The translations under genes were made by a program, and so were the position numbers. A stretch of 61,045 bases of DNA, counting the filler, from Dugesia japonica (lineage: Eukaryota), in the NCBI GenBank assembly GCA_001938525.1. It is 6 parts of 6 records of this genome, joined end to end, with 100 filler letters (N's around TTAATTAATTAA, not from the genome) between each part and the next. Parts side by side here need not be neighbours in the genome. Positions count along the whole stretch, not along the records: positions 43,245 to 51,784 come from MQRL01593053.1; positions 51,885 to 61,045 come from MQRL01573941.1; 4 more parts are not named here. The stretch is one strand, 5' to 3'. The first letter of the stretch is position 1; each line of letters begins with the position of its first letter. Shown one piece after another: positions 8,889-52,084 of the stretch. The notes under the pieces were generated by a model. The model saw only the letters and a program-made list of their open reading frames with translations. It was not told the origin of the DNA and ran no database searches.

Positions 8889-8895
8889 AAAATTA

Positions 8896-9253
8896 AAAAA
8901 CTTATATTGGCATAAGGGTGCTGATGAGAAGCATGGACTGTCTAAATCTGAATTTTGTAATATTAAAAGGAAAATTATAAATGGTTTTAATTCTAATTGG
9001 AGCAAAAGATTAAGACCAGGCGATGTTATAGTTGTTGATGATCTGTATCAAGAGGCAAACAAAGAAAAGGATTTCAATAATTTATTCACAAAAATATTGA
9101 GACATCGTAATGTGACTTTGATATTTATTACTCAAAATCTATTTCATCAATAATGTAGTCATAGAACCCGTAATTTAAATGTACAATATTTGGTTCTATT
9201 CAAAAATCCTAGAGTTCAAAATGTTGTTAATTTTCTAGAAGGACAAGCATATC
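8896..9253 (+). pseudogene. Polinton/Maverick A32/FtsK-like packaging ATPase, C-terminal part
   Basis: Manual translation (absent from the ORF track): DVIVVDDLYQEANKEKDFNNLFTKILRHRNVTLIFITQNLFHQ*CSHRTRNLNVQYLVLFKNPR. This carries Walker B hhhhDD, the RHxxxxhhhhxQ motif and R..N...VLFKNPR; there is one stop at 9151. Confidence 0.88.
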
Positions 9254-9388
9254 NNNNNNNNNNNNNNNNNNNNNNNNNNNNNNNNNNNNNNNNNNNNTTA
9301 ATTAATTAANNNNNNNNNNNNNNNNNNNNNNNNNNNNNNNNNNNNNNNNNNNNCGGGAAGTCGTATCTTTAAAGTTACATGCGAAATA

Positions 9389-16155: not shown

Positions 16156-17346
16156 TGGTTAATTTTGTTTTGTGAATAAATTTTTAATGAAACCAAGTAG
16201 TGAATTCAATTCTTTGATGGTTACTTGAACCTCATCCAACAATGTTAACATCCAATTTTGCATTATTGTGGAAACTTTTAAAGATGAAGAAACAAAAACT
16301 TTCAGATTATCCAACCATTTTATCCATTTAAGCGATACCTTTATTAGAAGAAGGAATAGAACTAATAACGAGAAAATTGTTAAACAAAATTGGTTTGAGT
16401 TGGATATTAGAAATAAATTCAAAAATTACCAAAGTATCAGGCATTAGCAGACTTTCCAGTAAAAGCTATATTCCAACGTCTAGCAACCTTTATAATGTTG
16501 GGGTGAAACACCCGTTTCGTAAAGAAAATCAATTTTAGAAAAGATAGAATCGGCATACTTTCTTAACTTTTCATCACTAGAAAGGTTACAAATCGTTATT
16601 TTTATTTACAAATCGTTAACGAAATATAAAGAGGGCAATTCATTGTTTGGAGAAAAATCCATCAGTGCAATCAGAAGATATCATCCTCAACTAATTTGGA
16701 TTCCGCCAGCTTAACTAATTAGGAAAAGAAGAAAATTACAAATCCTCGTTGCAGTAACCCGAATCTCATTACAAAAGTAAAATTTTTAGTTTTATTTTAA
16801 AAATGTGTATTCATAAAATATTTATGCAATAATAAAATTATGAATTATTCTCAATTACCTTATGATCGAATTTTTATGATTTTAAACATAAATAAGAAAA
16901 GATAAATTTATACAATTAATATATTTTCATCTTTAGTAAAAAGAATTCACAGATTACCATGCCAAGTTATCATAAATCCACTACTCAGAAATGCTGTCTG
17001 TCAATGACTCTATCTTCTGCTGAGAAATAATTCCATCGATTAAACGCCTGCCATGAGTTTCCGATCAGTATGCATCAACTGGTAAAATTACAGAACAGCC
17101 ATCGCCGTTAATTTTGAAAACGAGATAATTGTTTGATGTTACAATTACACACATTCTTTGTAAATCCATATTGAGTATTTGAGTTTGAGTAATATTAGGC
17201 ACACGTGGCTTTATCTCTTAAAGTAGGTGTGTGAACCCATCACTCAACACATTTAGTATCGACCGATAGAAGAATTCGTCCCACACTGACTAGAAATTTT
17301 CTTTGAATAAAAATGTTGTGGAATAGATATAACTGATGTTCGTGTC

Positions 17347-17770
17347 TAATGTCCAAACAACACCAAATTTGTCGTAGCTAAAATGACTAACGGATAATGA
17401 TATTACATCAGTACTTGGTCCTTTATACTAGGCTGGGGTTCTCGTAGATCTAGCAAATTTACCAGCAAAAGAAATGTATGGTGATAGGAAATGGAACGCC
17501 GATGAGCGTGTGGCCTATTATGACTGGAATGGCTCCGATCGAACTCGGGCAGTCTACCACGTCGTCTCCACCACTCAATTAGATATGGAGAGCCACAGGC
17601 CGTCCAGGTGTGGCAAGAAGGTCCTTCTATCATTAATCTATCTACTGAACTCTTACCTCCTTTCCCTGAGCTGAGTGCTTTTGTCCTGCATAATTTGTGG
17701 AACATCCGTAACTAGGGTAAAGGCGGTAATTCCGAGAACTTTGATCCCACCCCCACCAATGAGACTTCAT
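17347..17770 (+). pseudogene. LTR-encoded ORF A, decayed copy
   Basis: AGVLVDLANL..DRKWNADERVAYYDWNGSDRTRAVYH..WQEGPSI..LWNIRN*GKGGNSENFDPTP aligns with the intact ORF at 49623-50027. Confidence 0.75.
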
Positions 17771-17937
17771 TATAAATAATTGTTTTTAATTGATGGTTAA
17801 TAAAATTATTCTCACTCTATCTTTACGTTACTGTTGATTTCTATAAACCATTGTAAGGAATAATAATCTTTTAACTATACAATTTGTTGTTTGAATTTTT
17901 AATTTTCCATTTTAAATTGACATCCTCATCTTTGTAG

Positions 17938-18341
17938 TGCATTCATCTCTAAACCGATCTTCAGCACCTACTAAAAAGGTAAGGGAATCAAGCGAAGACC
18001 AGGAAATGACCTGGGACTTATATCGCCTCGCGAAACGCCACTAGGAGGCAGATTTTGCAAACGCTGAAAGCAAAGTGAAACGCTATAAGGCTAAGTTCAT
18101 TGCCTTTCGGAAAGAAACAGAGGCCTCTCACGCTCAGGAGAGACCCTGGAAGGCCCAGTTAAAATCGTTTGCAGAAATCATTCGGTCCCTCCATGACCAT
18201 GAGAATAAACTGATTTCAGACATTTTAGCTCTAAAGAAGGCCATGTCGCTTGAGCCGTTGATAATTGATAAAAATACAAACATCGCGGCCATAATCTTGT
18301 CGGTTGTTTTCACTTGTAAATATAAGTTTCCTTGTTTGTAG
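17938..18341 (+). pseudogene. LTR-encoded ORF/exon B (coiled-coil-like), one in-frame stop
   Basis: After tttgtAG: HSSLNRSSAPTKKVRESSEDQEMTWDLYRLAKRH*EAD...EASHAQER; homologous to 49039-49397. Confidence 0.8.
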
Positions 18342-18442
18342 ATTGATTTGTTTTTTTTTATTTACTTGATACTTATTTTTATTATTCAATTAAATTTAAT
18401 GCACTCAGTCTATCGTTAACCTAATAGTTACTATCTGTTTAG

Positions 18443-18799
18443 GGCCACGGATTCGGTTACCTACCAGCTTGCACCGGTATCATCGTCGTATCCTAAAATT
18501 GCTTCTTAAACGCCATATTAAACGGCAAACTGAAATAGCCTTGTTGCGACACCTGTTGCAAACGTTTAATCAAGAAGCTCGACCATATATTGAAAAAGCA
18601 GGGTGAGGTGGTTGAAAAGACTCAGCAGATACTACAGCATAAGATTGACTTCCTGCAACGTTATAAACCGGACTTATCTAGACACCTAGGGAATGAGTCG
18701 TGGATCCGTTGGAACGACAACGACGATGAAGCCGTCTTCGGTTTTTCAGATGAGGAGCCAACCAATTGGTTAGACCCGAGCGCTCTCGATTATATGTAA
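18443..18799 (+). pseudogene. LTR-encoded ORF/exon C, frameshifted
   Basis: After ctgtttAG: ..LLLKRHIKRQ..LQHKIDFLQRY..WNDNDDEAVFGF..WLDPSALDYM; homologous to the 42.3-42.9 kb and 48.5-48.9 kb copies. Confidence 0.8.
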
Positions 18800-19539
18800 A
18801 TAATTCATAATAAATGTTAAAATTAGTGAATTCTCAATTTCTTTAATAATTACAAAGAAGGGAAAATAATGAACCCAAACCATAGGTATACGAGTGAGTA
18901 CTACAAGCTAACGATGGTAGTCAACTGCTCTATACCGAAGATATAATAAGGGACATTAGATAAATTCTTGAATGGGTCTGATTTTTCCCCAGCCATAATT
19001 TTTCTAACACCAACTCAGGTTGGACCCCAACAATAAGAAAAAAGTAATAATCAATGCTAAGAACAAGGACAATTTATGTATTCTTGTCATTCTCAAAGAA
19101 ATTGAAATTGATAAAAATCATATGAATAATGTAAAAAATTATCCAGAATACATGTCAAAGTTAAATTTTGATAAAAGTGGCATTACAATAAAATTGGCGA
19201 ATACATTATAATTTGTGAAAACAAATCCTTTAGTGTCATTTTTTGAAATCATAATTCAATGATGAAAATGATACTGTTATGAAACATTCAAATCTAGACA
19301 TAATTCTAAAGTAGTTGGTGCTAGGAAAATTTATCTGTTACTATTAAAAAATACCAACAAATTTGGTTACACCACAGTAATAAATTTAAACTAATAAATC
19401 GAGATGTGAAAAAAGATAGTGGGCGAATTCGATCAACGTGGTGTTCTAATTATCTTAATGGATTCCGAGATAATATCGCTTATAATACACATGGACCAAT
19501 GTGATAAAATTCAGACGGGCATCACATAATAAACTATGC

Positions 19540-19690
19540 CAGGGTTCGGCAACCTATGGCACGCGTGCCAAAAGTGAGTCGCAAAGCAAATCTTTTAAAA
19601 GTTAATTAAAATTTATAATTTTTGCAAAACATTGTAATATTTGTAGAAAATATGATTTTTTTAATATTGAAATCGATATTAATTGTGTGN
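19540..19690 (+). mobile_element. hAT-superfamily transposon left end
   Basis: CAGGGTTCGGCAACCTATGGCACGCGTGCC is a typical hAT (Charlie/Buster-like) terminus; truncated by a gap. Confidence 0.6.
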
Positions 19691-19847
19691 NNNNNNNNNN
19701 NNNNNNNNNNNNNNNNNNNNNNNNNNNNNNNNNTTAATTAATTAANNNNNNNNNNNNNNNNNNNNNNNNNNNNNNNNNNNNNNNNNNNNATATAGATAAA
19801 TTTAGTGGAATATATTAATGGTATTATTGACGAGAATTTACATTAAG

Positions 19848-29789: not shown

Positions 29790-30722
29790 ACGAAAAAAGC
29801 TATAGTTAACTCATTACGCTAATGGAAAGTATGTTTTACACTAGAAACTGCTACTAACGTACATAATATTAGGAGTTGAAGTTAAAGTTGTTCATAGAGC
29901 GGTAGAATTTAATCAAGCTCATATATTCGAACATTACATTGCAATAAACACTTTGTAAGAGCAGAATGTAATACTGATCTTGAGAAAAATTACAATAAAC
30001 AACAGTTTGTATGGGAAATCGATCGAAAGTTTAAAGAAAAGGATAGATTTATGATTATTTATTACTAATAAAAAGCTAGTAACATGCTTATAAACCCAGC
30101 TTCCGGAAATCATTCAAGATTATTGAAAACCTGATAGCAACTTGAATGAATAAAGAGTAATTATGATTAGTTTTTCCAAGATACATTGGTCCATCTGTAC
30201 TTGACTTGAGCAAATTACGAATCTACTAGCTACCGTATATCAAGTTCGAGAAATACAGAATAGAAAAAAAATGTAGTATTACTATTGTAGCTGGAGATAC
30301 TGACAGCTTTTATTTTTCTAGAGTTGGTGGATATAAGTCTGGGAAAACTGACTGGATTGATGAAGAAAGACGAAGAATTAGATACTTTTAACTATAGTAA
30401 TACATTCAATTCAATCATTGGTAAGTGTCAAGATGAAACTAAGAGAAAGAAGTATTCAGAATGAATATTCTTACGTCCAAAATGTTACAGGTTGCTTTCT
30501 GAGAAAAAAACAATGAAAACAAAAGACGTTACATTGAAAAATAGCATCATCAGCCATCAAACATATGTTGATTGCTATAATAATGATGAAAAGATCTCAG
30601 CTGAACAATTTCGAATTGTTTCTAAGAATCATCAACTGTTTAGCTTAAAATCTCAAAAAATAGCATTAAGTAACAGCGATGATAAAAGATATTGGTCAGG
30701 AAAAAAGAATAAATATATATAA
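29790..30722 (+). pseudogene. Polinton protein-primed DNA polymerase B, C-terminal part
   Basis: Fragments VHRAVEFNQ, EKNYNK..SLYGKSIE, YIGPSVLDLSK, AGDTDSF, GKCQDE, LRPKCY and KIALSNSDDKRY. Confidence 0.9.
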
Positions 30723-32428: not shown

Positions 32429-32528
32429 NNNNNNNNNNNNNNNNNNNNNNNNNNNNNNNNNNNNNNNNNNNNTTAATTAATTAANNNNNNNNNNNNNNNN
32501 NNNNNNNNNNNNNNNNNNNNNNNNNNNN

Positions 32529-33345
32529 TGCTGGTCGTATGATTTCGGACCTGATCTTATCGTTTCCTTGAAATTATCTATCCTATCCTTTAGATTACCC
32601 TCCTTTGGGGCTTGATCGATAGGTGCTATAGCTCGTTGTCCTTGGTATTCATTGAACATTGCTTCTTTTAGGTGAGGTAACTAACAGTCCTGGTGATCTA
32701 CTTTGTGTGTCAATGTTGATGTACCTGTATTACATGATCCATCTGCTGCTTTGCAGTATGACCTTCCTTTCATTGTTAGATCCTGGGCATCAAAAAATGC
32801 TTCATATTCTTTGAGTTCTACTGTATAAGTTTCGATTGCCACTGCATACGTCCATACCTTTCCTCGTATAGTGTATGTACCATATTCACAGTTACCTTTG
32901 TGTGAGGATATGCTTCCTGCTGCTTATATCGGTTGATCAATTACATGCTCTTTCTTGGCAATAACTTGAGTCCCATGTTTGATGGTAATTTTACCTGTCG
33001 TAAATCCTTCGTCCCATTGTTGTCCTGTTAGATGTACAGTCTGTCTCACTGTTCCTGGATCAATTATCGAAGTATAACTGTGATAACCACAATGAAATAT
33101 AAACGTCTTTACTGTTACTGTACATTCGCGTACTTGGACCTTATAATAATCGGACTCCTGGTACAAGTGGTAAATAGAATTATTATGGAGTGAGATTTTC
33201 TCCGGGTTTGCGTCTGGACATTCTTCTGTATCCACTAATGAGAATACTTCCTTCCCAACTTGCAATTCATCGCAATTGTATGCTAATAGGGCTTCACTTC
33301 TGCCCATCATTAAGAATAACAAGAGTATTGTAGTGGTTAACGCTT
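32529..33345 (-). pseudogene. env: envelope glycoprotein, chuvirus-G-like, N-terminal part with signal peptide; two in-frame stops; truncated by gap
   Basis: ALTTTILLLFLMMGRSEA|LLAYNC..FSLVDTEEC..LYQ..VQVRECTV..FHCGYHSYTS; past the stop it continues in frame as AAGSI..GNCEYGTY..W..AVAIE..YCKAADGSC. The cysteine and motif spacing match chuviral glycoproteins. Confidence 0.8.
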
Positions 33346-33449
33346 GCCATGAATTTCGGCGAGGCCCACGTGTCCAGCCATTCTCAATCTCATTTAACTG
33401 ATCCCGAACAATCCTAGTTGCATTTTCATGAGATGGCTGAGGCTTAGGG

Positions 33450-33850
33450 CATATGGCCTCAATAAACTTTTTCCATCCCCCATGCTGCTTTATCAACGGC
33501 ATTATCTTGTTCTGCATGAGCTCCACTATTGGTAGTTTACTGAGAATGAAGTTTTTTGACGGTTTGCTTCTAGCGATTGATAGGTGTTTTTGATTAATTA
33601 GATGCGCTATAGATACTACTATCCTTCCCTTTGTAGTCTGATCTTGTAATAACTCATCTATTACTCCTTCTAAATAGTCTCTTGTGCCATGACTAGTACC
33701 TTTAGTGGCGGGAAATTTCTTAATGGCTGCTTCTATTTCTTTTACCAGTGGTTTGAGACTATCAGATAGTTGAAATTTCCCAATCCATATCTTTAATTCT
33801 GGATAAAGCATTAGCAATAGTTGCGGTATTACTACTTCAGTTGGCATGTC
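33450..33850 (-). CDS. Bcl-2-like domain within the polyprotein ORF 32924-34801
   Basis: BH1-like YLEGVIDELLQDQTTKGRIVV, BH2-like NKIMPLIKQHGGWKKFIE, and an upstream amphipathic BH3-position helix LSDSLKPLVKEIE, in the correct order and spacing. Confidence 0.72.
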
Positions 33851-34569
33851 ATCATATATCTTTTTGATATCTTTTTGCGATATCGTTGCTAATCGCTTAG
33901 TTTGGTGAGTTATTGATGTTGTTAATCGTTTTTGTTTCAATGCTTCCTCCTCCCCCGGATTTCCTGGGTGTTTCGTTCTTGGTCTGCTTCTATTGCGAGG
34001 TTCAATAATAGTTTCTGCATCTACTCGGGTGCGCACTGGTTTTGGTGGCGCTTCTTCCTCTTCTGTTTCAATTGGATTTTCCATTTCTAGGGGGTGGTTT
34101 GTATCCATTAAATCATCCATTACCGAGGATGGCAATTCCTTTGCTATCCTACTTAATATTGGTGATAATGGTTGTTCCTCTAATACATCTTCCTCGTCTA
34201 GGTCTACCTTGCTAGGATCATATTTCTTGCTTCTAGTTGGCTCTTTGACTTTCATTTCCTCACTTTTTCTAGTTGGAGGTGAGTATCTTGTGATCTGCAA
34301 TTCATTCTCATCTTCTGTTAACTCGTCTGCTGATGGAGATCCGAATATTTCACGTTCCCAATCTTTGTTTGTTTTAGGAGTTTCCTTTGTTTCTCGAGAC
34401 GCTTCTGTACTTCCGGATTGATCTGTTGTAGGTCTTAATATTTGACTAGCCGCTAATTGTGTACGGAGTTTATATGCTTTTAACATACCTGAGGTCTCTC
34501 CCATTATTGATCTTGTTTTGTCTGCTGCCTTATAAGGGTCTGCGTCTTTTCGAGTGAGAGTACATCCTA

Positions 34570-35045
34570 ATTCTGGAAAAATCCACAACGTATTAGGTTT
34601 AACTAAATCTATTTTCATTAGTCCAATCGGGGTGGTATCTTCCACTATTCCATCTTCATCCAAGAGTTTGTGTGGTGGCTTAAATGGTAACTTGTCTCGT
34701 AGGTGCTTTACCATATTGTATACTGGTATCTTTATCGTGATTTTATCTCCCTCTGGATCAATTGTTCGGAATTTGACTTTTAATGGAGTGGTCTGTCCCA
34801 TCTCTGCTTTCTGGCAACCTCATTTGGTCTAGTTCTATTACTTGGTTATAATAGAGTACTATGTCGTCTTCCTGCAATAATGTTTGCATTCCGGTTTCCC
34901 CCTCGTCAAGGCTACGCTGTTGATTCATAAATTTTATAATCCTTTTCCGCAACTTAGCCCATGGTTCATTCATTTGGACCTGCCAACGAATTTCACTTTC
35001 ATCTGAAAATTTGATTATTACGGCCACGGCTTCATTAGTTATCAT
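34570..35045 (-). pseudogene. two tandem SUMO/ubiquitin-like domains (frameshift near 34820)
   Basis: VIIKFSDESEIRWQVQMNEPWAKLRKR..IVLYYNQ.IELDQ..CQKAEM is SUMO/Rad60-like. EGDKITIKIPVYNMVKHLRDKL..LLDEDGIVEDTTPI is Ub-like. Confidence 0.55.
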
Positions 35046-35055
35046 TCAAACTGCT

Positions 35056-38000
35056 TTAATTAATATTGCATCCATTACATCTCCTGGCATTCAGGACTAG
35101 TTGTATGGCTTTGTCATGTCTTAATAGTTCCAAGTTTTCTTCCAAGGTTAAGAGTATTTTCATTATTACTCTCGCCACACTTCCCCATGTTTTACTGTCT
35201 TCCCATAAGTCAATATTTATCTCCATTGTTCTATCGTCGACTTCTTCAAACAATTTCCCACTGTTAATTTCTTGTTCGTATAACCCCTCCAGTTGTTGTA
35301 GTACTTCTTTCATGGATTTTATCGGGCCTGGGGTGTAGTCTTCTGGTTTCTGTATTTGGAGAAATGTATTTTCACCTGGTCTTAATCCTATGTCCAGCAG
35401 ATGTTGTTTTCCTTCAAACTTTATGGGGAATCTCAGATGATCGCTTGTGATTATATAGCTTTTCTGCTGGTCGGCTATATCCAGGGTTTCTATAATTTTC
35501 TGCAATTCCCCAGCTGACGTACTGTTAAAATGTGGTATATGCATGACAGCCAATTCCGGTTTCTTCCTGGGTTTTTTGTTTGGTGTCAGATTTTCTATCG
35601 TGACCTGTAAATCCTCTCTCTTGGCACTTGTCTTCACTGCACCAATATACGGCTTGATCACTGACTCCCATTTGGCACGCTCTTCCTTTGTTATTTCAGT
35701 ATACTTTGCCAGATCCATTAGTAAATTTAATGCCCTCCAAAATGCTGCTCGAGGTATCCTTTCCTGGAAATAACAGAAATCAGAAATTATCTTCGATATC
35801 CGCTCTGTCTGAGGGTAACTGAAGGGGCCAACAAATTCTTGTTTAAATGGTAACAGTCGTGGTTGGACGATGTCCTCCGAGATTTCTTTCTCCTCCTCTT
35901 CTTCATCTGATATTGGGTCTGTGGCTTCATGGTTAATATCCCGAACCATGTTTATTTGGGCTTTGTTTTCTCCATATGTGTTTATGAGTCGCTCATTCTC
36001 TACTGGTAAAATTTCCTGAATATATAGGCTCATCATATTGAATATGAGTTGATCGGTATCCGGCATTTTTGGTATCGGAATGTCTATGGTCATTTTACGC
36101 GGTATTGGTTTGATTTCCGTGATCTCCCCTGGTTTGATATCATGTAGAAAGATTTGGTCCTCTTTCTCGGCTAGTATGATCATTGTTGCTCCTGCCTGCA
36201 TTTTATAGGACTTGAGCGATTTTGGCCATAACCATTTCTTGATCGATTTTATGATATGGTGGATAGTTAATCCTTCCAGAGTTATCATATCTACCTTTTT
36301 TATGCTTCCCTCTTTATTGAGGAGGCTGACTCTGATAGAATAGTTAGATATGGTGGATGTATTTTGTACTTCCTCTTCGTATAAAGTTTTCTCTTTCCAC
36401 CATTGTGCTCGAGCCCACAAGCTGAGCTGTCCATAGGTTGCCAAATCCCGTAGGTTATTCATCATTTTCCAATATACTTTGATATTTACTACCGGCCGAG
36501 TTTCTCGTGTTACTCTTAGTAGATCGTTGATAGCATGAAACGTGGCGGATTCTTCCGTTATTGGTTTCGTGTAGTTCATCCGAATATCACGTATTGTCGG
36601 TGTCCCTTCCGGAAATTCAACTGATTTTGTAGTAATTATTGGCAAGTTATCAATATTCTGTATTTTCCGATTTTCTTTTACTTGTTCCTTTATACCTGAC
36701 AATACCTCGGATACGTATAATTACGTTATTTCATCCATTCGTTCCTCAAGATCTGGTGATGGGTTGGTCCGTGGCTTCTCTTCTACATCTAACTCACATA
36801 TTTCTCCGGGCATGGCATTGGAATATGTGTTTGTCCTCGTCGTCGGTCTCAACTAATTTGCCATTTATGAACAGAGGTACCATGTTTAGCCCTTATTCTC
36901 GCCTCTTATCAGTAATGGCATCCATTAAATCCATCATGGTTATTCTTTGTGGTTTTAATCGGCTATATTTAGTCAGTTCCTGTTCATTTTTACCTAAATT
37001 CAAATATAATTTATAGTCCTGAATTTTGGAAGTTGCCAATATTTCTTCGGCATACTTTTTTCTAGTCATGAGCCATTGATTCTCAATTTCCTCCGGTATT
37101 TCCAGTCCATCATATATGTCGTAAATTCTATTCATTATCATCCAAAATGTCTCTCGGGGTAACTTCTTCTTCTCAATCTGTACTCGGTTAAACATTTCCT
37201 CCACCTTACGCATCGCTACTACCTTTCTTGCTGGCATTTGCCGCATCCTTATCATGTTGCATTTACCTTCTCTTCTCTCTAATCGTTGTTTGAGAAAATC
37301 TTTACGCGTCATCAATAACTGTTTCCTCTCCTCCTTTGTCAGCTTGTCTTTCCTCCCTAGTACTGTGGAAAGTATCTTTATTTTAATAGGTTCCACTTCC
37401 TGTTTATATAGATATTCCATTTCTCCCATGATTTCTAATGCCGATCTTCCGGTTTTCGTTATCCATATGTCATAGTTGATACCAGGGTGTTTGTCTAATA
37501 TTAAAATTTCAATTTCCTCTCCTGGTTTTACCCCAAAATCGTATAGATGTCTTTTTCTGGCATTAAAATCTACTATAGCACTTGGAGTACATACCTATTT
37601 ATCGGTTATACATGTATAGCCTGCTTGATTAAGCGCCGCTTCTAGATCTTTTACCATTAATTCGGTGAGTGTCAGTTTCATATTTCCTTCTGGGTTATAC
37701 AACCATAATTGGTAGTCTGATAATCCCATGTTGGATATTACCCAATCATAATGCACTGGTAACCATTCTGTCCAATCGCTTTCATAATCGGTGATCAGTT
37801 GTATAACTTCCAATAACTCAACCAATCGATTGGTAAACTTTAGGTATACATCTTTCTTTATCGTATCATGGAGTTTCTGGGCGGCTACCAGTATCTCATC
37901 AATTCGGACTAAGGATAGTCGTGATGCTTCATTTTGTTCCAATTCCGCATAGTCCATTAGTCTAACTTTCTCAAATCTTTTCCGTAGGTAGTTTTGAGCC

Positions 38001-38620
38001 TGGAGGGGAACTATTTCCTTTAAGAATGTTTCTTCGAGATTATGATATAACTCGTCCGTTTCTATTTCTTGAATTACTATTTGTGGTCGGAATACCAAAT
38101 ACCAATTTATCAATTTAATTATTGTAGTTTCATGAGGTCGTTCCCCGTAATAAATTAGATTCCTGTCATCTGAAAGAATATTGATTCCTATATTACCTCT
38201 TTGCAATCTGTGCCTATTCCACTTTCCATTCCATTGTTGCTGAACGTTAAACGGTGGTAATTCGAGAAACGGGTTTATAGTCATACCCTTGATACCATTT
38301 ACTTCCCTACATTTTATCTCGTTAATAGCCTCTTTCAAATGTCGTACCGTCATTCCTTTTAGTGGTAGCTTTAGTCGTTTTGGAATGACCTCCGGGTTGT
38401 TATGCCATACATATTGAATTTCGAATTCGTAATCTTCTAGCCTAGTTTCTTTATAAAGCTCGGCGATATAATCCGATATTGTTTTCTGCCAGTTAACTTT
38501 TACTTTTGCGTGTACCTGTGGGTGCTGGTATAATTGAAGTAACTGATTCATCACTCACCTTCTTCCGGTGGTTGTCGTTGATGTTTATATCGTTTTATAG
38601 ATGATTTCATTTGCTCACTC
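35056..38620 (-). pseudogene. tandem array of five diverged ~230-aa helical plus ubiquitin-like repeats (one polyprotein broken by a few stops/frameshifts)
   Basis: Recurring motifs: F/YWxxMNxL..W helix; TVRHLKEAI / MVKDLEAAL / TMMDLMDAI / TIHHIIKSI / SAGELQKII; NLIYYGERPHE / HLYDFGVKPGE / HIFQC.MPGE / QIFLHDIKPGE / HLLDIGLRPGE; then LYxQEI. ORFs 37595-38554 and 36893-37429 are in the same frame across a single TAG. Confidence 0.7.
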
Positions 38621-38829: not shown

Positions 38830-40240
38830 TGCACTTTGTGGTACACATTGTCAAAAGTACTTTGATGCACTAAATTGACTTGTCCCTTGTTTTGATTTAC
38901 TAGTTGTCTTAATCTCTCATTTTCCTGCATTAGATTATCCAGATTTGTATTCGGATTCCGATTATAATTTGTTTGGTTACGTTCTGACATTCTTTTGCCA
39001 TATGCCCTCTTCTGTTACACTTGTAACAGACCGTTGGATTTTTCAAAAAACACGTTTCTATGTTGTGGTTGGTTCTCTTGCAATAAGTAAAAAATCGGTT
39101 GTTGTTATTATTATTGCCTCTACTTCTACAATCTCGCGCAATATGCCCCTTTCTTTCACAGGAATTGCATTGCATATCTCGATTATTTTGCCAGTTATTC
39201 CGAGGTGCATTAAATCCTCCACCATTTCCTCTGGGATAGTTAGGTCTATCATTCCGGTTATTCCGTTCCTGCCCTGGGGTCAGGGTTTTCATCATTGATT
39301 GCGTATTGGGTATGAAATCTGATATCCGTGTAGTTTCCTCTGTCTGTCCTTCTACTTTGAATATTCGTTCTGACGGTCTATCTGCTACAATTCGCAATGT
39401 TGCCAGAGCGTCTTGTAGAGTCACTGGCTTACTCAATTTTACCATTAGTTTGGTGTTCTCGTCACATAATCCGTTCAAAAAGATGGCGAGTACTTGACTG
39501 TCTTCCAGCTTGTCTCCTAAGGCTAATTTCCCACGCCTTTTGAGTTCCATCATATACGCTTGTGGAGTTTCTCCTCTTTGTTGTTTTCGATTGGTAAATT
39601 GTTTGAAATCCTGGCCAGTCAATTTTAAATTTTGGAAATTATCGGTTAGTATTTTCACAACCTCTTCCCATTTGTCGGGAATGGCTTCCATGCCCTTAGT
39701 GTGATCCCAGAACACCGTTTTGGCTACTCCGGTCAAGTAAGCTGGCAATCGCTTCCTTTTTGCTTCCTCGTCCCATCCACAGGTTTTGGCATACATTTCG
39801 TAATTTTGGATAAGTTCATCCAACTTTTCTGGTATTCCGCTAAAATATTCGCCATCGAATTTTATTTTCCACTCCGGTTGATGGTTTTCGGTTTTGGTTG
39901 TCATGTTGTTGTCCTTTGCTGTGTTGGTTTCTATTTTCGGGTTTTCAGTTATAGCTGGGGTGGTTTTGTTTNNNNNNNNNNNNNNNNNNNNNNNNNNNNN
40001 NNNGGTGCTTCCTTGGTTACTACCTATTATCTCTGTCTCTTCTGAGGTATAACTTAGTTCGCTTAGTCGGTTTTTATCCGTAGGTGGATTATTATGGGTT
40101 CGCTTCTGGATTATTTGATTTTCTTTGTCACTTGGGCTACTATTTGAACTGATGGCTTCTAATGTTTTGGTTTTGGATAGCGAAGTTGATTTGTCGAATT
40201 CTGATTTCTTGAACGAACAAATATTCTCTTCCTGGTCCAA
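38830..40240 (-). CDS. gag: retrotransposon Gag (capsid and zinc knuckles), frameshift near the 3' end
   Basis: FSG..LDELIQNYE..GWDEEAK..LPAYLTGVA..W; RKQQRGETPQAY; CNSCERKGHIARDC and CYKCNRRGHMAKEC, plus a degenerate middle knuckle. It continues in frame 38709-38990, and decayed coding sequence extends upstream to ~40450. Confidence 0.93.
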
Positions 40241-41007
40241 ATAAAATGACGATTTCTTGAATTTCCTTGATTACCTTTGTCGGTTAAGTTGGGCTTCTTT
40301 TAGAGTTGAGCTTGGGGTAGATATTCCGGATGTAATAGACCTTGCAAGTGGTTTTCTATTTTCCGAGTCGGAATCTATTTTGTCAGAGTTCAGCTTGTTG
40401 AGTGCTTACTGTATTTCGGTTTTGGTTTTGTAATACTTGTAGTTTAACTTTCTAGAATAAAATTTACTTTTAATTGTCTTTATTTAGGAGACAATCACTC
40501 CTCTTCTTGATTTTAAACTTTCTTTAATATCATGCTGCTCTACGCTTGTCATCATAGCCCCATAATCATCTTCCTTAAATTTTTTCCTTTTTTTCCTTAA
40601 TTAAGTCTTCCTTCAATCTTCCTGTAATGCTTCCTTTATTTCTTCCTAATTAACGCCAGGTTATCTCTTCCTAAATGTGGGAGTACCCATTTTTCTGTAG
40701 TATCGGCGAACTCTTCTGGCTTTCTTTCTTTTCTTCCTTTTAATATGCCGGGGTAACAGTGCACACTTTTCCTAAATTTATGGGGGAGTACCGAGATTTT
40801 TCTGAGGGATCGGCGGCCCCGTTTGGAGTACCCTTTTCGTGCAGGCGAACGCTTNNNNNNNNNNNNNNNNNNNNNNNNNNNNNNNNNNNNNNNNNNNNNN
40901 NNNNGGGATCGGCGGCCCCGTTTGGAGTACCCTTTTCGTGCAGGCGAACGCTTCCGGCTTCTCTTCCTTTAATGCTTCTTCTAATCAAGCTTCCTTTAGT
41001 GTGCTTA

Positions 41008-41285
41008 ACTACGTGGCCTTCCTTTAACATACTGGTTAATGTACTTAGGACTACACGTATCTTCCTTCCTTGCGTAGACTTCCTTTAAATTCTTCCGAGG
41101 TTTTCCCTCCCATACGCAGGCTTCCTTAATTATGCTTCCTTATTTTCCTACGTGGTCTCCCGTTAATATACTGGTTAATGTACTTAGGGCTTCGCGAAGT
41201 CGTCCTTTAATTTGCTTCCTTCCTACGTGGTATCCCGTTCACATACTGGTTAATGTACTTAGGGCTTCGCGTAGCCTTCTTTTAA
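41008..41285. repeat. three ~65-bp tandem-like repeats in the element leader
   Basis: ctacgtgg..atactggttaatgtacttagg at ~41010, 41150 and 41223; on the minus strand these read (E/V)(A/V)LSTLTS.L..(D/G/Y)HV. Confidence 0.7.
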
Positions 41286-41931
41286 TATATGCGCATCACA
41301 TATCTGGTAATACCCAATTACTTCTTCAGTTATAGTCATTAGACAACTGTTGCGGTTGCTTTCTACAAAGGTGATCAATCTTCTGATTGCAACTTACCAG
41401 TTGGGGATCGCTATTTTCCATAACTGTGTCTGTAATAAATATGACTGGATATTCTTCCTATAATCTTCCTGAAGTTTTTTTCAAGATTAGCTTCCTTAAA
41501 TTTCTTCCTGATTAACATCCTTAAATTTATCTTCCTTTATTTTCCTTTAATTTATTTTCCTTTAATTTATCTTCCTTTACTGTGCTCCTGGTTACGTTTC
41601 CATGGTGACTTCCGTGGATATCTCGACATGATCTCTGAAAATATAAAATTACAAGTTTTATTGATTTTACTTCCTGATTTTACCTGTTTTGTTATTATTC
41701 TTATTCCTTTTTATTTACTAACTCCTTATAATCGTCTTAATTTCATATCATCCTTAACTTCCTATTTTCATAATCTGCTATTTTCATAAGTGATTACATA
41801 ATTTTATAATTTCGATATTTTATTTATTTTCATCATTTATTTAATCATTTTACTAATAATATTACACATAATAATAATCTTTATGCTCTTATTTCCCTAT
41901 TCTTACGGGGTTTTATTTCCTGAAAATTTTA

Positions 41932-41954
41932 TTCAAATCCCGGCTGAGCCCCCA
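41932..41954 (-). promoter_or_regulatory. primer-binding site, tRNA-Pro
   Basis: Minus strand TGGGGGCTCAGCCGGGATTTGAA is complementary to a tRNA-Pro 3' end (..TTCAAATCCCGGNNGAGCCCCCA) and lies 7 nt from the LTR end. Confidence 0.88.
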
Positions 41955-41961
41955 AAATTCT

Positions 41962-43368
41962 TGTTGGGGTCCCACCTGAGTTGGATGAAGAAAAGTGTGG
42001 CTGGAGAAAAACAGCCCTCAGGGGAACCCTTTCAAGAATTTGACCTAACGCCCCTAGGTTAAGTATTCAGCATATGGCGGTTGACCTCTCTCTTAATGGG
42101 AGGTGCGCGCCCATAGGCCTTTGAATTTGGGTTCACNNNNNNNNNNNNNNNNNNNNNNNNNNNNNNNNNNNNNNNNNNNNNNNNNNCCTTTGAATTTGGG
42201 TTCACTCTTTTCCCTGTTCCCACGGCTTCATCAAAGATTAGAACGAATTGAACAATAAAACTTTATTTTAAATGAAAATTAGATAAGATCCAAAGCGCCT
42301 GGATCTAACCACTGGGCTATATCGGTCGTCAAAATGTTGAACGCCGCCGAATCATCATTGTCGTCCTATTGGACCCCTGTAGGGTTTCCTAGTTGGCGGG
42401 AAAGGTCGGATATATATTGTTTGAGGAAATCGATTTTCCTCTGCAATAGCATTTTATTTTCATTTTCTAACGCTTTTGTCTACACCGCCAAGTCCTTCTG
42501 CTTTTTCACAATCTGATCACGTTTTTTGATCAGACGATCTTGCTGGTCTGAATGCTTAATCAATGCTCTATCCGCTTTCTGCTTTAAGTGGCGCTCTAAG
42601 AGTAGACGGCGCATTATGCNNNNNNNNNNNNNNNNNNNNNNNNNNNNNNNNNNNNNNNNNNNNNNNNNNTAGTTGGCGGGATAGGTCAAATATATATTGT
42701 CCTCTGCAACAGCATTTTATTTTCATTTTCTAACGTCTTTGTCAGCACCGCCAAGTCATTCTGCTTTTTCACAATCTGATCAAGTTTTTTGATCAGACAA
42801 TCTCGCAGGTCTAAATGCTTAATCAATGCTCTATCTGCTTTCTGCTTTACGTGGCGCTCTAAGAGTAGACAGCGCATTATGCGATGGCACCTTCGCAGAC
42901 TGTTTGGAAAATTAATGCGTGTCACTAAAAGAAGATATATCATTAAATTATTTCTGTAAAACAGACAAAAGATAATCAAGTGAATAATTCAGAAGGAAGA
43001 ATGTAGGTATAAAAAACGTTTATTTGTAAATTTACAAGTATCAAGGACGCGAGGTCTGGCTACCCTTGTTGACCATTAATGGTTCGAGGGGCATAGCAGC
43101 TTTTAATCGATGGACGTCCTGTACCAATTGGTTTTCGCGGTCTTNNNNNNNNNNNNNNNNNNNNNNNNNNNNNNNNNNNNNNNNNNNNTTAATTAATTAA
43201 NNNNNNNNNNNNNNNNNNNNNNNNNNNNNNNNNNNNNNNNNNNNCCAGATTTAAATTCATCGCGGAGTTTTACCAGGTCAATTACCCTAGACTTAATTTT
43301 ATATAAAGTTCGACCCCCTAGATTTAAATCATACCAGAATTCAACCCACCTAAGGTAAAACCCCAACA
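41962..43368 (-). repeat. 5' LTR of the giant element (true length unknown; spans a scaffold linker)
   Basis: On the minus strand it starts TGTTGGGGT at 43368 and ends ACCCCAACA at 41962. It contains ORF C (42279-42924) and the tail of ORF B (43041-43144). Confidence 0.8.
42279..42924 (-). pseudogene. LTR-encoded ORF/exon C in the 5' LTR (partly duplicated across a gap)
   Basis: After cttttAG: TRINFPNSLRRCHRIMR.LLLERH.KQKADRALIKH..WLDPGALDLI*. Confidence 0.75.
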
Positions 43369-43384
43369 TTATTATTAATATTAA

Positions 43385-45832: not shown

Positions 45833-48515
45833 CTAAATTAAAGATTTAAATTTATTACTTTATTATAAATGATGATTATGATATGGATTTAAAGATCATT
45901 TTGATTGAAAGCTCATATATTATTAAAATTTAGATCGACAAAATATTTAATCATTTAATTAAAATCTAGGTACACGAATTAAGTGAAGCCGAAACCATAT
46001 TGACTGTTTAAAACCTTTTACACAGCTGTTTCTGTCAAGTCAGTACCAGTCTTTAATGGAATGTGAATTTACTGGAGAGCCGTCTCTATATTTCCCGATA
46101 ATCTTTCAATTTTCTTGATGAATTGTATTCTTTCGAATAAATCTAATTAGACTATTTTACTTGCGATCTCTTAGCCGTAATCTAGAAGATGAACCATTCG
46201 TTACAATCGTACCAGTGGCAGCTTTGCTTGTTTCATTAACATTGTTCCAAATTTATTTGTTACAGATAATTTACGTAATTTGTTAATCATAAAGAAAAGA
46301 ATTTACTAAGCCTTGCAACACTGAGATTGTACCGACCAGTTCGTCTTTATCTACTATGTTCTATTTAAATAAACATTGATTTATCACAATACTGAAATAA
46401 ATTAAGAGCAATTATATTAATTGACGAAATTGAATATGGTTTCATTAATCACGATGAAACATTAGATATTTTTAAATAAAGTCCTCAGAGAGAATTATGA
46501 TAAAGGCAATCGCATATTAACTATAATTTAATATCATCATTATAAATCCTGAATAAATCAAATATAAAAATTTAGAAATAATATAACATTCGATTAAAAA
46601 TACGATCATACCAACAATAATATAATTATAAATAAAATTTACTATTTTCAAGGAATTTTTTATACACATGTCAAAATCAGCATTAGAAAATTTATAGGAA
46701 ATGTCCACCACCACCTAAAATTACGTTGCATCATTTTATTAGTGTCAATTTTTATTCATTTCATCTTTATATTTATCCCGAGAATCGATATCATACCAGA
46801 TCTAACCATATTTCATTATGGTTCACCTCTCGGTAGTCAATATCAATATCAGTTTATAGAGTCTAATACTTTCTACATTTATTCATCGTATTTCGTGATT
46901 CTATTCGTCAGTATATTTAAAATTTAGGTTTAAACACTCTTTTATCACACCTATCAATTCATTCCCTCAATCTCCATTTATTCTCAGATTATCGTTATCT
47001 ATTCATAGTTCATGTTGTCGAAAAATGAATCAATTGGGCAATTATCAGCTTCATACTATCTTAACTGACATTTGCATCAAGTGAAAGTGGGGAATGATCT
47101 CGTTTTTAACTTTAAACTTACTCTGAGTTTGAACGGCTCTAGGCATTCCACGCCACACCCGAATCACGATTTATCCCGATCGTCCGATGATCAGTTCTCT
47201 CGGCAGCGTCGGTGACTCTTCCCAGGGAGTGCAGGCGCCTACCGATTTCATTTAGGGTCGTTTTACGGTAGGGCGATAGAAGCTCTAGATTGACAAAAAA
47301 TGTCATGCACACCCACGCTGGAACTCACTTACAATTCAACAAGGTAGATAAATTATAGCATTTTATTTAAGCATTAAACATCAACCATCGTTTATTAAAT
47401 GTCATTCATTTTGGATCTTGCTCTTAATTGAAGATGACGTTTGCTTTGATTTTCTTTTACACGCTTTCATTCGGGAAGAATATGATTGTATATGATTTAT
47501 TCGTTTGAGAATGCTATTTCATCAATACAATAAACTGCGGAATTCTGGTGGCGATCTAGCTTTGTTCATTGCTATCTACTATTTCCTTTAGATTTTTTCA
47601 TCTAGGGTTGTGGTCCTCATAACGAGCGTTGGACATCGCAATGTTCCTTCTGGATCCTCATACCCTGCATTGGTCGTCATAGTTAGTACTTGGAAATCCA
47701 CTCCCATCATTGTGTCGCAATCTCCACTCGCATCATTCCGTTGACTAACACTTACCATTTGAGCTATCATCTTTATCGTTCAGAGGACTTTATTTTTGTC
47801 ATAGGAGAGCAGTCATTCGCAGTATTCGGTAAGATTCACCTTTTTTGTTTTAGAACCATCCGGTTTCGAGTAATACTTTTATTCTTCGCAAGCAGCTTTA
47901 TTTTTATCAGTCGCGATCAGTTTTATCATTAACTTCTTTATTAGGAGCATATTTATCATTGGCATCTTTATTACATGCATCATTATCATTAGAAAATTCA
48001 TTTGGAATTGTCATTCTTGCATATCGTTCAGGAAAAAATCGTTCATTTAGTTTTCAATTCTTCATTTCGATCTTTAGTTATAATTCAGAGACCCTCAGTT
48101 GTCGAAGTGCGAGATCCATGAAGCAAAACTAAACGTAAATTTTAAAGAAAAATTAATCTTACCGAAATACAAGATGGCCGAAAAAATGGCTGAGTGGATT
48201 GGTTTTTTTTCTTGTAGAAATTAAAGCAACAAAAATAAACTGATAATTTTAATTGCCAGGGCTTATATTTGTNNNNNNNNNNNNNNNNNNNNNNNNNNNN
48301 NNNNNNNNNNNNNNNNNNNNNNNNNNNNNNNNNNNNNNNNNNNNNNNNNNNNNNNNNNNNNNNNNNNNNNNNNNNNNNNNNNNNNNNNNNNNNNNNNNNN
48401 NNNNNNNNNNNNNNNNNNNNTAAACCTTTAATTTCGGGTTCTATATTTTCCCTATTATTATCCAAGAAAATAAACTACAACTCTGATTAAAAATTTTTAT
48501 TAAAAGTAAACATAT

Positions 48516-48898
48516 TTAAAGCAGATCCAAGGCTCCTGGATCAAGCCACTGGTCAGGGGACGTTATTTCAAAATTGAATGCAGCGATGTCCTCATCGTTG
48601 TCCCACTGCATGGTGTTGGGGTTGCCAATCTGCCTCGATAAGTCCGCAATATATTGTTTTAGGAATTCTATTTTTCGCTGTAGTAATTGTTTATTCTCTG
48701 CTTCCAATGCCTTTGTCTGGATGGCAAGGTCATTTTGCTTTTATACTATAGCGTCCAATCTTTTAATTAGCTTATCTCGTTGGTCTAAATGTCGTAAGAG
48801 GGCCTGGTTGGTTTTTCGTTTCAGGTGCCTCTCTATCAGCAGACGGCGCAGTAGGTGGTGGCATCTACGAAGATTGTTTGAGAAATGGATACGAGTCA
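48516..48898 (-). pseudogene. LTR-encoded ORF/exon C, one in-frame stop
   Basis: After ttgttttAG: TRIHFSNNLRRCHHLLRRLLIERHLKRK..(TAA at 48741)..LLQRKIEFLKQYIADLSRQIGNP..WLDPGALDLL. Confidence 0.8.
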
Positions 48899-49038
48899 CT
48901 AAAACAAATTATCATTAATTTTAGTAAAATTTCCTCAATGGAAAAGAACATAAATCTGATGAAAATAACAAAAAACAAGAAATCCACGAGACAGTTCAAA
49001 CGAGAAAATTTATTAACACAAAAGAGGTGGCCTCCAAA

Positions 49039-49397
49039 TTAATTCTTAGGGGTTTGGGTGCTTTTCTCAACCATTAAAGGTTCTAGTGGCATGGACGCCT
49101 TCAGCTTCAGAACATCACCTACCAGTTTATTTTCTCGGTCTTGGTAGGACCGGATCATCTCAACCAAGGACTCTACCTGCCCCTTCCACACTCTCTCTTG
49201 TGCATGGGAGGCCTCGACTTCCTTTCGGAAAGCCACACATTTTTTTCGGTATCGGCTTACTTTACTATTGGCGTTGGCTGTATCCGCATCCCACTTACGC
49301 TTGGCGAGACGATACAGGTCCCACGTCATCTCGCGGTCCTCGCTGTCATCACGCATTTTTTTCGTCGGAGCCGAACTTCGATTTAACGATGAGTGCA
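49039..49397 (-). CDS. LTR-encoded ORF/exon B, intact, coiled-coil-like
   Basis: A 119-aa open frame that starts at an AG|TG junction rather than an ATG; homologous to 17938-18341; AATAAA downstream. Confidence 0.8.
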
Positions 49398-49622
49398 CTA
49401 GTAGTTACATATCAATACGAGCAAGAATCAGAAATTTATGCATCCAGATCAAAATATATATGTATAACTTTTCTTTTAAGTTAGTTTAGTGAAATATCTA
49501 AATTTGGGTCTGCTTTATAAAAGAAGAGCTGTAAATATTAGTTGAAGATTCGCATTACAATAATAACAACAAGCATATATTCTAATTTGAAAAATTATAG
49601 TATACATGGGTAATTTAATAAG

Positions 49623-50027
49623 TCAAGGAGTGGGGTCTGTGTTTTCTAAAGCGCCACCACTGGCCTGATTTCGCAGTTCCCATAGAGTATTACCAAGATC
49701 TAATGAAAATCTAGTACCTCGAGGAAGGTGGGCAATCGACACAGGTAACAAAGACGGCCCATTTTGCCATTGATTAAATGTCTGATTTGTTACTGGATCA
49801 AAAAGGGGGGTTCGGTGCATAACTTCTTGGGTGCGATCGGGACCGACCCATTCAAAGAAAGCTTGGCGCTCTGCAGCCGCCCATTCTCTTTCGTTATCCC
49901 CATCTTCCTGGGTTAAGTTGGAATAATCCGCCAGGATACCCGCATTTCGGTCATGTGGGTTTTTGTATCGTTTAAAAATGGTACGCCCTGTGCGACGATC
50001 CCATAGTAGCTCCCATTTATGTTCCAT
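49623..50027 (-). CDS. LTR-encoded ORF A, intact, 134 aa, unknown function
   Basis: ATG-initiated ORF preceded by an acceptor-like taatgtAG; conserved at protein level with 17347-17770. Confidence 0.78.
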   Translation of the reverse strand: MEHKWELLWDRRTGRTIFKRYKNPHDRNAGILADYSNLTQEDGDNEREWAAAERQAFFEWVGPDRTQEVMHRTPLFDPVTNQTFNQWQNGPSLLPVSIAHLPRGTRFSLDLGNTLWELRNQASGGALENTDPTP

Positions 50028-52084
50028 ATTTGTTTGTTTATTTCCTACATTAATAGTTAATAAAATTTCTTTTATTTAATTAGGTTGAAGTACATTTAGG
50101 TAATTAAATAGTGATATTTTAGAAAACGTAAATTATGATAAAACACGGGTTTTCATTTATAAACGAAGCATAGCATCACTATTAGTCTAACCAATCTCTA
50201 CTAAAAGAAATTCATCATAAATTCAGATACAGTGGTTATTCTTCAGCGATCTCCACAATAGATTCTAGGGGGAACATCTCAACGAAACACTGAAGGTCTG
50301 TCTCGTCGGGATGTTCCACCCGGCCTTTGGTTNNNNNNNNNNNNNNNNNNNNNNNNNNNNNNNNNNNNNNNNNNNNNNNNNNCGGATTGGCGTTGTTTTC
50401 TTATTTTTCGTAAAGTATCACGCAATACTGCTGGCATTATCTAAGGAAACAAAAAAATATAACAATAACATCGTTAAAACCATCTTGCTATTCGTTTACC
50501 CGATAATTTAATGTTATTGTACTATAAATACGAGGTTGAGACGCTTCCTTACACTCAAAGATAAATTGTTAAATAAAATCCTATTTTAGAATCCCTTTTG
50601 GTGTAGCACCACCTGGTTCTTTAAAATATCATGATTGAACTAATGGACGCCTCTATTACTCAGATACTGAATCATTAACGAGTTATGGACCACATAGGGT
50701 TGAGATTAATCATAACAGTATTTGAATAACTATGCTGGTAAATAGAGAATTAATTCAATGATCGGTGGAATTCCTCTACAGACTTATTTATTTCAGTCCT
50801 TGTCAGTTACAAAATCTACTTTTACTGATGACAAAAATCCAAGGGTGACTTCAATGACATAAATCTTACTGCGGTTCATAATACATAAAACTACGGCTAG
50901 CCCTTTCTAAACAAAAATAAAACAAAGGTGGTCCTACTGACCAAGGTTTTTATTTTCTAAATTACTTTATTTCATAAAAAATTTTAGTGCAGGAATCCTA
51001 GTTTTTGTCAACACAAGATAATAATTGATTCAAATCAATGTGGGTTTAAATTGATATTATTTGATAATACCGAGGCCAGTAAAACTACTCCACACTCTTA
51101 TTAATATTACTGTCCGTAATTATCGCAAAGGTAACCACAATAGAGACAATAACACTCCTCATAATCATACCGCTAAGGCCGGTATTAGCTGATAAGTCTA
51201 ACACCGACAACAACGATACTCATGATGATGAGATCAATTACCCGACTATGGTTATACTTGGACCAACTAACAGCTCGATATAAGTACTGACAACAGGATA
51301 TTAAGATAAATTGGAATTTCTTATTATAATAATAATATAGCAATAAAATATTATGGAAGGAAAATCAGGCCTTGGTTAAAAAATTTGTTTTTTATATTTC
51401 TGCTCAAACCGGATGCTTGGCAATTTAGTTACTCTTCTCTTCTCGTTTGCAGATACACACTGACGAGTTAGGTGGATTGCACAACTGTAGCCATGCATAC
51501 TCCGCTGGTGGTATGCAAACCATCGATTGATAAATTCGATAACAGATTTATGTAAATCCTTATGTGGACTATACAATAATATAGACATGCAGCAGAACAT
51601 GAAATAGTTTCATATTAGACAAGGAAAGTCTAATGCAATTCTCAATCTGGTGTAAACACGGGAATTCACAGAAAAATATAGTGAATTGATGATCGGCTGC
51701 CTATGGAAAATAATTGAATGATCGAACCCAATCCTTTCACAAGCCAAGCGCATCCACTATTACCGATCTTATCATTTCTCAGCANNNNNNNNNNNNNNNN
51801 NNNNNNNNNNNNNNNNNNNNNNNNNNNNTTAATTAATTAANNNNNNNNNNNNNNNNNNNNNNNNNNNNNNNNNNNNNNNNNNNNAAAAAATGAAATCATT
51901 TAAAAATAAAATATTTTCTTAAATACTTAAGAAATATAAATGATGTAATAATATATAATAACATCACCTTTTTTATCAAGAAAAATGAATTATAAATAAA
52001 TATTTTTGTAATCAGAAGTTTATTCTTTAAATGAATTTAAAATTTACAATGTAAGTTACTTATACACAAGGTTTGAAGTATCGA

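Follow-up and report, generated by a model that had tools for sequence, protein, structure and literature searches.

How might a row of small genes be expressed from within a long terminal repeat (LTR) when some of them carry no start codon of their own? The usual assumption is that LTRs do not code for proteins, and open reading frames (ORFs) that lack an ATG escape gene finders. The question is raised by a 61,045-nucleotide stretch of DNA from the planarian Dugesia japonica (NCBI GenBank assembly GCA_001938525.1; at its full length, the window), in which three decayed LTR copies of a retroelement, likely a Burro-like gypsy element, hold small ORFs that we call A, B, C and D. A sequence-only reading had taken these ORFs for alternative terminal exons served by one upstream donor, possibly with a start codon created by splicing. 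Here we report that A, B and C, judged from their codons, are genes that evolved under purifying selection, that the sequence gives good support for an upstream donor being spliced into B and C, and that a start codon built at the splice junction is the reading toward which we lean for both. All comparisons are limited to the three copies.

The window joins parts of six records and is AT-rich, with many gaps and a wealth of transposon pieces. It contains five 100-nt spacers (N44, 12 letters, N44) at 9254-9353, 19690-19789, 32429-32528, 43145-43244 and 51785-51884. In the spacers near 43 and 51 kb, the 12 letters form a linker with stops in all six frames, and the sequences on either side need not adjoin.

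Small genes inside the LTR

The first claim of the sequence-only reading, that the ORFs reside in LTRs, is borne out by the LTR ends, by a target duplication, and by a site resembling a primer-binding site (PBS) with gag behind it next to copy 2. Copy 1 (16496..19032, plus strand) is a complete solo LTR of 2,537 bp that runs from TGTTGGGG to CCCCAACA; it has TG...CA ends, terminal inverted repeats, and the 4-bp target duplication ATAA on both sides. Copy 2 (41962..43368, minus strand), with the same ends, is the 5' LTR of an internal element and is split by the gap at 43145-43244; it contains the final part of B and a damaged C, the latter present twice around a 50-N gap. The duplicate of C, at 42433-42882, has 92% identity over 187 nt, and probably two copies or haplotypes were joined here in assembly. 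Copy 3 (48270..50442, minus strand) shows homology to copies 1 and 2 that reaches the N gap. Its 3' end is probably at 48270, given that the distance from the stop of C to this point is 246 nt, compared with 233 nt in copy 1; no PBS was found after this presumed 3' end, and the 5' end, which was not found, may extend to 51784 or further. DNA identity among the copies is only about 59 to 68%, so they represent different subfamilies, and each contains stops or frameshifts.

In copy 3, ORF A (49623..50027, minus strand) is open for 134 amino acids (aa) from its own ATG, and ORF B (49039..49397, minus strand) is open for 118 codons after the junction codon. ORF C (48516..48898, minus strand) has 126 codons with one premature stop at codon 52. 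The corresponding ORFs of copy 1 (plus strand) are broken: A spans 17432-17775, B runs from 17938 to about 18290 with a stop at codon 35, and C spans 18443-18799 with a frameshift. The ORFs have a GC content of 44 to 50%, compared with 24 to 27% in the spacers between them, which measure 116 to 225 nt (116 to 149 nt between B and C).

Coding constraint was assessed in nine codon comparisons, from which two were left out as off-frame (the whole C of copy 1 and the second C piece of copy 2), by the proportions of synonymous (pS) and nonsynonymous (pN) differences. ORF B is identical at 77 of 116 codons between copies 1 and 3 (pS 0.84, pN 0.22), and ORF C at 50 of 76 codons between copies 2 and 3 (pS 0.82, pN 0.22); at the start of C, copies 1 and 3 share 12 of 30 codons. 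The two comparable pieces of A in copies 1 and 3 gave pS values of 0.80 and 0.77 and pN values of 0.34 and 0.42. Nonsynonymous change thus lies far below synonymous change, which excludes chance frames, and the conservation of each ORF extends to its own stop codon. B and C are not paralogues of one another (hhalign probability 0.1).

We also found ORF D (50236..50437, minus strand), which lies upstream of A in copy 3 and carries the motif EHxDETDxxC-x3-MxPL. An acceptor-like AG at 50441 (13 of 15 pyrimidines) precedes its own ATG by 4 nt. D is likely a fourth gene. The 5' part of copy 1 contains no remnant of either D or the N terminus of A (178, 287 and 172 of 300 shuffles scored as high).

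Probable acceptor sites and the start of B and C

The AGs reported ahead of B and C, at 17937, 18442, 42925, 48899 and 49398, were confirmed, and all five read TAG. Every one of them joins its ORF in phase 1, and four of the five read AG|TG, the exception being C in copy 1 (18442), which reads AG|GG; the copy 3 junctions TAG|TG lie at 49398..49399 for B and 48899..48900 for C (both minus strand), each with a branch-like motif upstream. As had been noticed, homology begins directly behind these AGs: in the four pairs that can be compared, ungapped identity per 60 nt rises from 12 upstream to 40 downstream, from 14 to 26, from 21 to 44, and from 22 to 32. With one copy per gene taken as given, retention of TAG in all five by chance has a probability of 3e-6 at spacer composition.

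The description of these sites as pyrimidine-rich held for only half of them. Three of six have 10 to 11 pyrimidines in 15, while C at 48899, B at 49398 and A at 50045 have only 8 of 15, which corresponds to the 56th percentile among all 5,256 AGs in the window. The five B and C sites and the A site of copy 3 nonetheless share a YTRAY motif 12 to 27 nt upstream, no closer AG, and at least 8 pyrimidines in 15. Scored by four acceptor features that were chosen after the sites were known, 6 of 8 candidate sites carry all four, compared with 160 of the 5,256 AGs; the D site and the A site of copy 1 lack the branch motif. The acceptor-like taatgtAG ahead of A is present at 50045, in phase 1 and 18 nt from the ATG, but it is not conserved in copy 1, where homology to A sets in 28 residues further on, after a different TAG that is in phase 0. 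Taken together, the sequence makes it very probable that the TAGs serve as acceptors.

The statement that B and C have no ATG needed qualification. ATGs do exist: codon 23 of B is a Met shared between copies, and the copy 2 C (42925) has an in-frame ATG upstream. What stands is that no in-frame ATG is common to the copies of C, in which the first Met is absent from 53 codons in copy 1 and falls at codon 16 in copy 2 and at codon 96 in copy 3. Ahead of the shared Met, 19 of 23 codons of B are identical with a pS of 0.93, so these 23 codons were evidently translated. Upstream in-frame stops occur within 2 to 21 codons, with an upstream ATG in only one of the five copies. Because there is no shared start and the upstream frame is closed, the start of B and C must come from elsewhere.

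The junction itself suggests where. TG begins both B and C though the two genes are unrelated, and the G that follows the junction T or G is kept in 5 of 5 copies, while four-fold sites are randomized (identical at 13 of 54 positions); the chance of this is 0.016. This G would be a free wobble position if a coding upstream exon supplied a G or C as first base. The ATG of D is out of frame with phase 1, in which the frame closes after 6 codons, and the ATGs of D and A, at 4 and 18 nt behind their acceptors, stand as expected of a non-coding leader. Given splicing, these patterns make it likely that the donor exon ends in A and has no ATG. The proposed splice-built A|TG start therefore gains from the kept G and the out-of-frame ATG of D, and loses from the missing donor and from the one copy that reads GG.

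The donor was sought with a home-made score that returns many candidates, none of them common to the copies. A-ending candidates occur in copy 1 at 16777, which follows 300 nt without an ATG and a TCAGT at 16662, and at 18894, near the 3' end; several more lie in the leader of copy 2, and none is shared. The B-C spacers contain no donor-like GT common to all three copies. Only this lack of a shared donor in the short spacers points to a single donor, and we consider it probable that the donor lies outside them and is shared by the ORFs.

A proposed mechanism and its weak points

On balance, we favor a scheme in which a non-coding leader exon whose last base is A joins one of several alternative acceptors and so builds A|TG for B and C. 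The LTR would carry a row of small genes, with A, B and C conserved and D likely. The leader would be joined to a choice of acceptors ahead of the ORFs; the junction would create the start of B and C, while A and D would start at their own ATGs. B and C would then be translatable from spliced RNA only, with neither made from unspliced genomic RNA, and the choice of acceptor would decide which accessory protein is produced. Were the promoter, start site and donor all at the 5' end of the LTR, each solo LTR would be a self-contained multi-gene expression unit across the host genome. Were the start site and donor behind the LTR, only full-length elements would express the row, across a very long intron. 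The A|TG reading makes one sharp prediction, namely that the base before the junction is A; the proteins would then begin with Met-His-Ser in B and Met-Thr-Arg in C.

A number of observations weigh against this scheme. No conserved donor was found, and just after B, copies 1 and 2 share CTT|GTAAAT, a possible private donor that ends in T and is absent from copy 3. Three of the acceptors are no more pyrimidine-rich than average, and the acceptor features that set the sites apart were picked with hindsight. The acceptor of A, which is unconserved in copy 1, is also in phase 1; this fits a coding leader and would arise by chance in 1 case out of 3. The AG|GG of the copy 1 C cannot yield an ATG; about 4% of sites in this C have changed since its death, which puts the chance of a change in the four junction letters at 0.15. 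In unspliced RNA the junction reads as an in-frame GTG in 4 of 5 copies. D is single-copy in the window and is interrupted by a 50-N gap. Finally, the counts are small and non-independent, coming from three decayed copies and two genes.

An AATAAA follows C in all three copies, 10 to 15 nt past the stop (48496..48501, minus strand, in copy 3), and is likely the main poly(A) signal of the element, at about 230 nt from the LTR end, where such a signal is expected. The claim that AATAAA follows most ORF ends held overall, with 6 of 9 ends having the signal within 45 nt (P = 0.001; the signal occurs in 1,661 of 10,120 AT-rich background windows). It weakens to 3 of 6 when C is set aside (P = 0.06). 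These three signals lie 17 and 25 nt past B in two copies (25 nt in copy 3) and 36 nt past A in one, with T-rich tracts behind them. Separate mRNA ends, each at the AATAAA of the ORF concerned, and a common end after C have about equal chances. The idea of one donor serving alternative last exons thus keeps its acceptors before B and C and the separate stops of the ORFs, while the donor was not found and separate poly(A) sites are weakly supported. It also counts against the scheme in its full form that nested mRNAs with a common end after C have as much support as alternative last exons. We regard as doubtful the complete arrangement, a cassette like that of complex retroviruses, in which one leader would serve at least four alternative last exons with a poly(A) site apiece and two unrelated genes would lie behind a split A|TG.

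Alternative explanations

The closest competitor to separate last exons is a set of nested mRNAs, made by the same splicing but ending at a single poly(A) site after C so that only the acceptor differs, and compatible with the A|TG start. Complex retroviruses make such nested mRNAs differing in acceptor, and internal poly(A) sites would shorten the genomic RNA before the R region; the contrast between C and the other ORF ends in their AATAAA signals points the same way. The signals and T-rich tracts behind B and A are left over in this account, and in MDG1-group elements a poly(A) site is used that separates two small ORFs (PMC11952523). We give nested mRNAs a little less than an even chance. 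A different upstream exon is envisaged if the leader is coding, with its own ATG and a phase-1 donor, in which case the ORFs would share an N-terminal peptide and no start would be built by splicing. Phase 1 holds for each of the six acceptors ahead of A, B and C, C in copy 1 reads GG, most donor exons end in G, and copy 3 has an A-ending candidate donor at 50869 with an in-frame ATG three codons ahead. The env genes of the ZAM, Beagle and idefix subclades provide a precedent (10.1101/2023.08.03.551782). Such a leader would leave the wobble-position G kept for no reason, would not account for TG at the head of two unrelated genes, and would put D out of frame, while A keeps a Met 6 codons in. 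We consider a coding leader unlikely.

Further from the favored A|TG scheme stand readings that change the kind of splicing or dispense with it. The spacers of 116 to 225 nt are inside the 300-nt threshold for operons, and flatworm spliced leaders end in AUG (PMC12582326), so that an operon resolved by trans-splicing could take the terminal AUG of the leader as its start; D and the A site of copy 1 do open in phase 0. Phase 0, however, closes after 4 codons in both copies of B and after 0, 0 and 17 codons in C, and because an AUG leader joins in this soon-closed phase, the conserved N termini would go untranslated. Trans-splicing is thus very improbable here. Scarcely better is the chance that nothing is spliced and B and C begin at the GTG overlapping the TAG, by near-cognate initiation or by stop-restart. 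TA-GTG is in frame in 4 of 5 copies, and a GTG start would also fix the T and the G, but it leaves the conserved TA unexplained (chance 0.003), and likewise the branch-like motif in 5 of 5 copies. The ATG-led upstream ORF ending at the TAG that stop-restart would need occurs in 0 of 5 copies, and each ORF would require its own promoter or internal entry. Least credible of all are a single gene with A, B and C as its successive exons, and reading frames that a repeat holds open by chance. The identical phase at all acceptors would suit symmetric exons, yet each ORF is conserved to its own stop, B in copy 1 lacks any phase-1 GT, and the phase-1 GTs near the end of A are unaligned between copies.

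Properties of the predicted proteins

Protein B is predicted to form a single helix over residues 12-101 (pLDDT 83.7, pTM 0.41). Its C terminus reads KSTQT in copy 3 and KGSQT in copy 2, with no match in copy 1, and (K/R)XTQT is a dynein-light-chain motif (PMC3789673); a dynein-light-chain-type ending in one of three copies is offered as a lead. Protein C appears coiled-coil-like, and each of the three copies preserves its acidic, aromatic tail. The structure prediction for A (pLDDT 39.7) was unusable, and no hydrophobic segment was seen by eye in A, B or C. As a guess from these features and models, the proteins may be regulators or adaptors of the element.

No relatives of B were found among proteins of 66 to 212 aa, nor of A among proteins of 73 to 235 aa, and B had no loci in metagenome or viral contigs. 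A profile of B searched against 1.84 billion representatives gave one match (E = 8.3e-6), to a 1,197-aa bacterial-type protein with which it shares heptad repeats only, and we discarded this match as coiled-coil noise. The best ESM Atlas score for A, 0.79, is only a lead. In Pfam and the PDB, B and C matched sub-threshold coiled-coil families only, and A and D matched nothing; a reading of B or C as bZIP proteins, made by eye, was dropped when no bZIP family appeared among the Pfam matches.

The element and its surroundings

Behind LTR copy 2, a decayed retroelement extends on the minus strand from 41.9 to 32.5 kb, where a scaffold gap ends it. It is likely, from the order of its parts, a Burro-like, envelope-bearing gypsy element whose reverse transcriptase is absent from the window. 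The PBS-like sequence (41937..41954, minus strand), which we take to resemble a tRNA-Pro site, lies 7 nt behind the LTR, and gag follows; the usual distance is 0 to 3 nt, so that the spacing here is larger. From the PBS to gag runs a long leader (40270-41950, minus strand) with A-rich tandem repeats, for example at 41009-41286, and a strong donor-like CTG|GTAAGT at 41397.

The gag remnant (38933..40270, minus strand) has CCHC knuckles in two stretches (Pfam zf-CCHC, E = 3.1e-8) and a Retrotrans_gag match under the cut-off (E = 0.0085). After gag come several large ORF pieces without known family. One of these, a polyprotein at 35059-38554 (minus strand) between gag and env, has about 1,100 codons and internal repeats without a Pfam family; some of its segments look ubiquitin-like by eye, a likeness that is unconfirmed. 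The next piece (32927..34819, minus strand) holds a segment with weak likeness to Bcl-2 (33682-33380) and, after it, a fusion glycoprotein. The latter is of mononegavirus type (PF24664, E = 2.5e-19, 69.2 bits against a cut-off of 27). The Bcl-2-like segment is under the cut-off in Pfam (PF00452, E = 0.052), and in the PDB 43 of 43 rows were Bcl-xL or Bcl-2, yet with a best E of 0.64. Pfam scanning of the ORFs between gag and env gave no pol family, in an interval interrupted by a 109-N gap, and matched no MATH, BIR or ankyrin family in the five large pieces scanned. Burro proper has these domains and one giant reading frame, and the copy here is broken into several ORFs. Beyond the scaffold gap at 32429-32528 lies an integrase piece (rve, E = 2.1e-4, under the cut-off) that may belong to another element.

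ATAA precedes both LTRs with a visible outer 5' flank (16492-16495 and 43369-43372, with the second copy of the duplication in copy 1 at 19033-19036); two of two is a weak count in AT-rich DNA, and the placement gives a weak hint of target preference. Behind the presumed end of copy 3, the minus strand at 47100-48270 is GC-richer, with short ORFs and no Pfam match. The solo LTR of copy 1 interrupts a decayed ORF, whose flanks (16229-16495 and 19033-19500, plus strand) we take for N-terminal portions of a DNA polymerase B of Polinton/adintovirus type, a label for which Pfam gave no supporting match. Other pieces are presumably Polinton-like by label: a polymerase B C-terminal fragment (30230-30719, plus strand) and a packaging-ATPase-like fragment (8866-9150, plus strand). 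The remaining decayed fragments carry labels that we assume without confirmation, namely mariner-like (28200-29210, plus strand), Helitron-like (12151-12456, minus strand), Tc1/IS630-like (23435-24430, plus strand) and Penelope-like (21635-22012, plus strand).

Comparison with known systems

The layout here, in which a CCHC Gag is followed by a long stretch of unknown nature, a segment with a Bcl-2 likeness under the cut-off and then a fusion glycoprotein of mononegavirus type, corresponds to that of the giant planarian gypsy elements Burro and GYPSM1 (PMC6431247); in planarian Burro, env stands between gag and pol, behind a BCL2-like motif (PMC6431247). The HSV/gB-type errantiviruses of Platyhelminthes, with a GAG-ENV-POL order, have the same gag-then-env layout as the element in the window, and by eye it matches the env rows of Smed_errantivirus_1 and _2 in the motifs YQES, VREC and TFxFxCG (PMC13524379). 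Troyka was considered and does not fit, having CG ends (PMC12440569), unlike the TG...CA ends found here. LTR ORFs or splicing are not described in the parts of the Burro and errantivirus accounts covered here (PMC6431247, PMC13524379); in the portion of PMC13524379 concerned, the string "splic" has 0 occurrences, and the table lists no LTR or PBS for six S. mediterranea elements.

If the proposed reading is true, a very abundant planarian-type element would hold hidden accessory proteins that belong to no known family and whose production would depend on the acceptor chosen and on a split start codon, and solo copies of its LTR may code for protein. No LTR gene row with alternative acceptors and two split starts was found for a gypsy element in the literature covered, outside which lie the 2018 paper that named Burro, its supplements, and Repbase entries, where LTR transcripts may be mentioned. 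Three known systems come near in separate respects. The sag gene of mouse mammary tumor virus (MMTV) is expressed from spliced RNA. It lies inside U3, hence in both LTRs and in solo LTRs, as these ORFs do, but it is a single gene, starts at its own ATG and belongs to a betaretrovirus of vertebrates (PMC12548423), whereas here there are three or four genes in a row, and no sequence relation is expected. The small ORFs sORF1 and sORF2 of the MDG1 group are, like A to C, accessory ORFs of a gypsy element under purifying selection, with a poly(A) site between them; they differ in lying between LTR and gag with canonical starts and no splicing, and sORF2 is a membrane protein (PMC11952523), whereas inspection of A, B and C by eye showed nothing hydrophobic of that kind.

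The nearest parallel to the start of B and C is the env of the springer subclade of Drosophila errantiviruses, which is spliced to an AU dinucleotide (10.1101/2023.08.03.551782). It is a Metaviridae ORF that lacks a start of its own, and splicing completes its AUG, as is proposed for B and C. The springer split, AU|G, has been mapped by experiment and concerns a single internal env, whereas here it would be A|UG, read from sequence for two unrelated LTR genes. Each ingredient of the proposed arrangement thus has a precedent, and the combination was not found in the literature covered.

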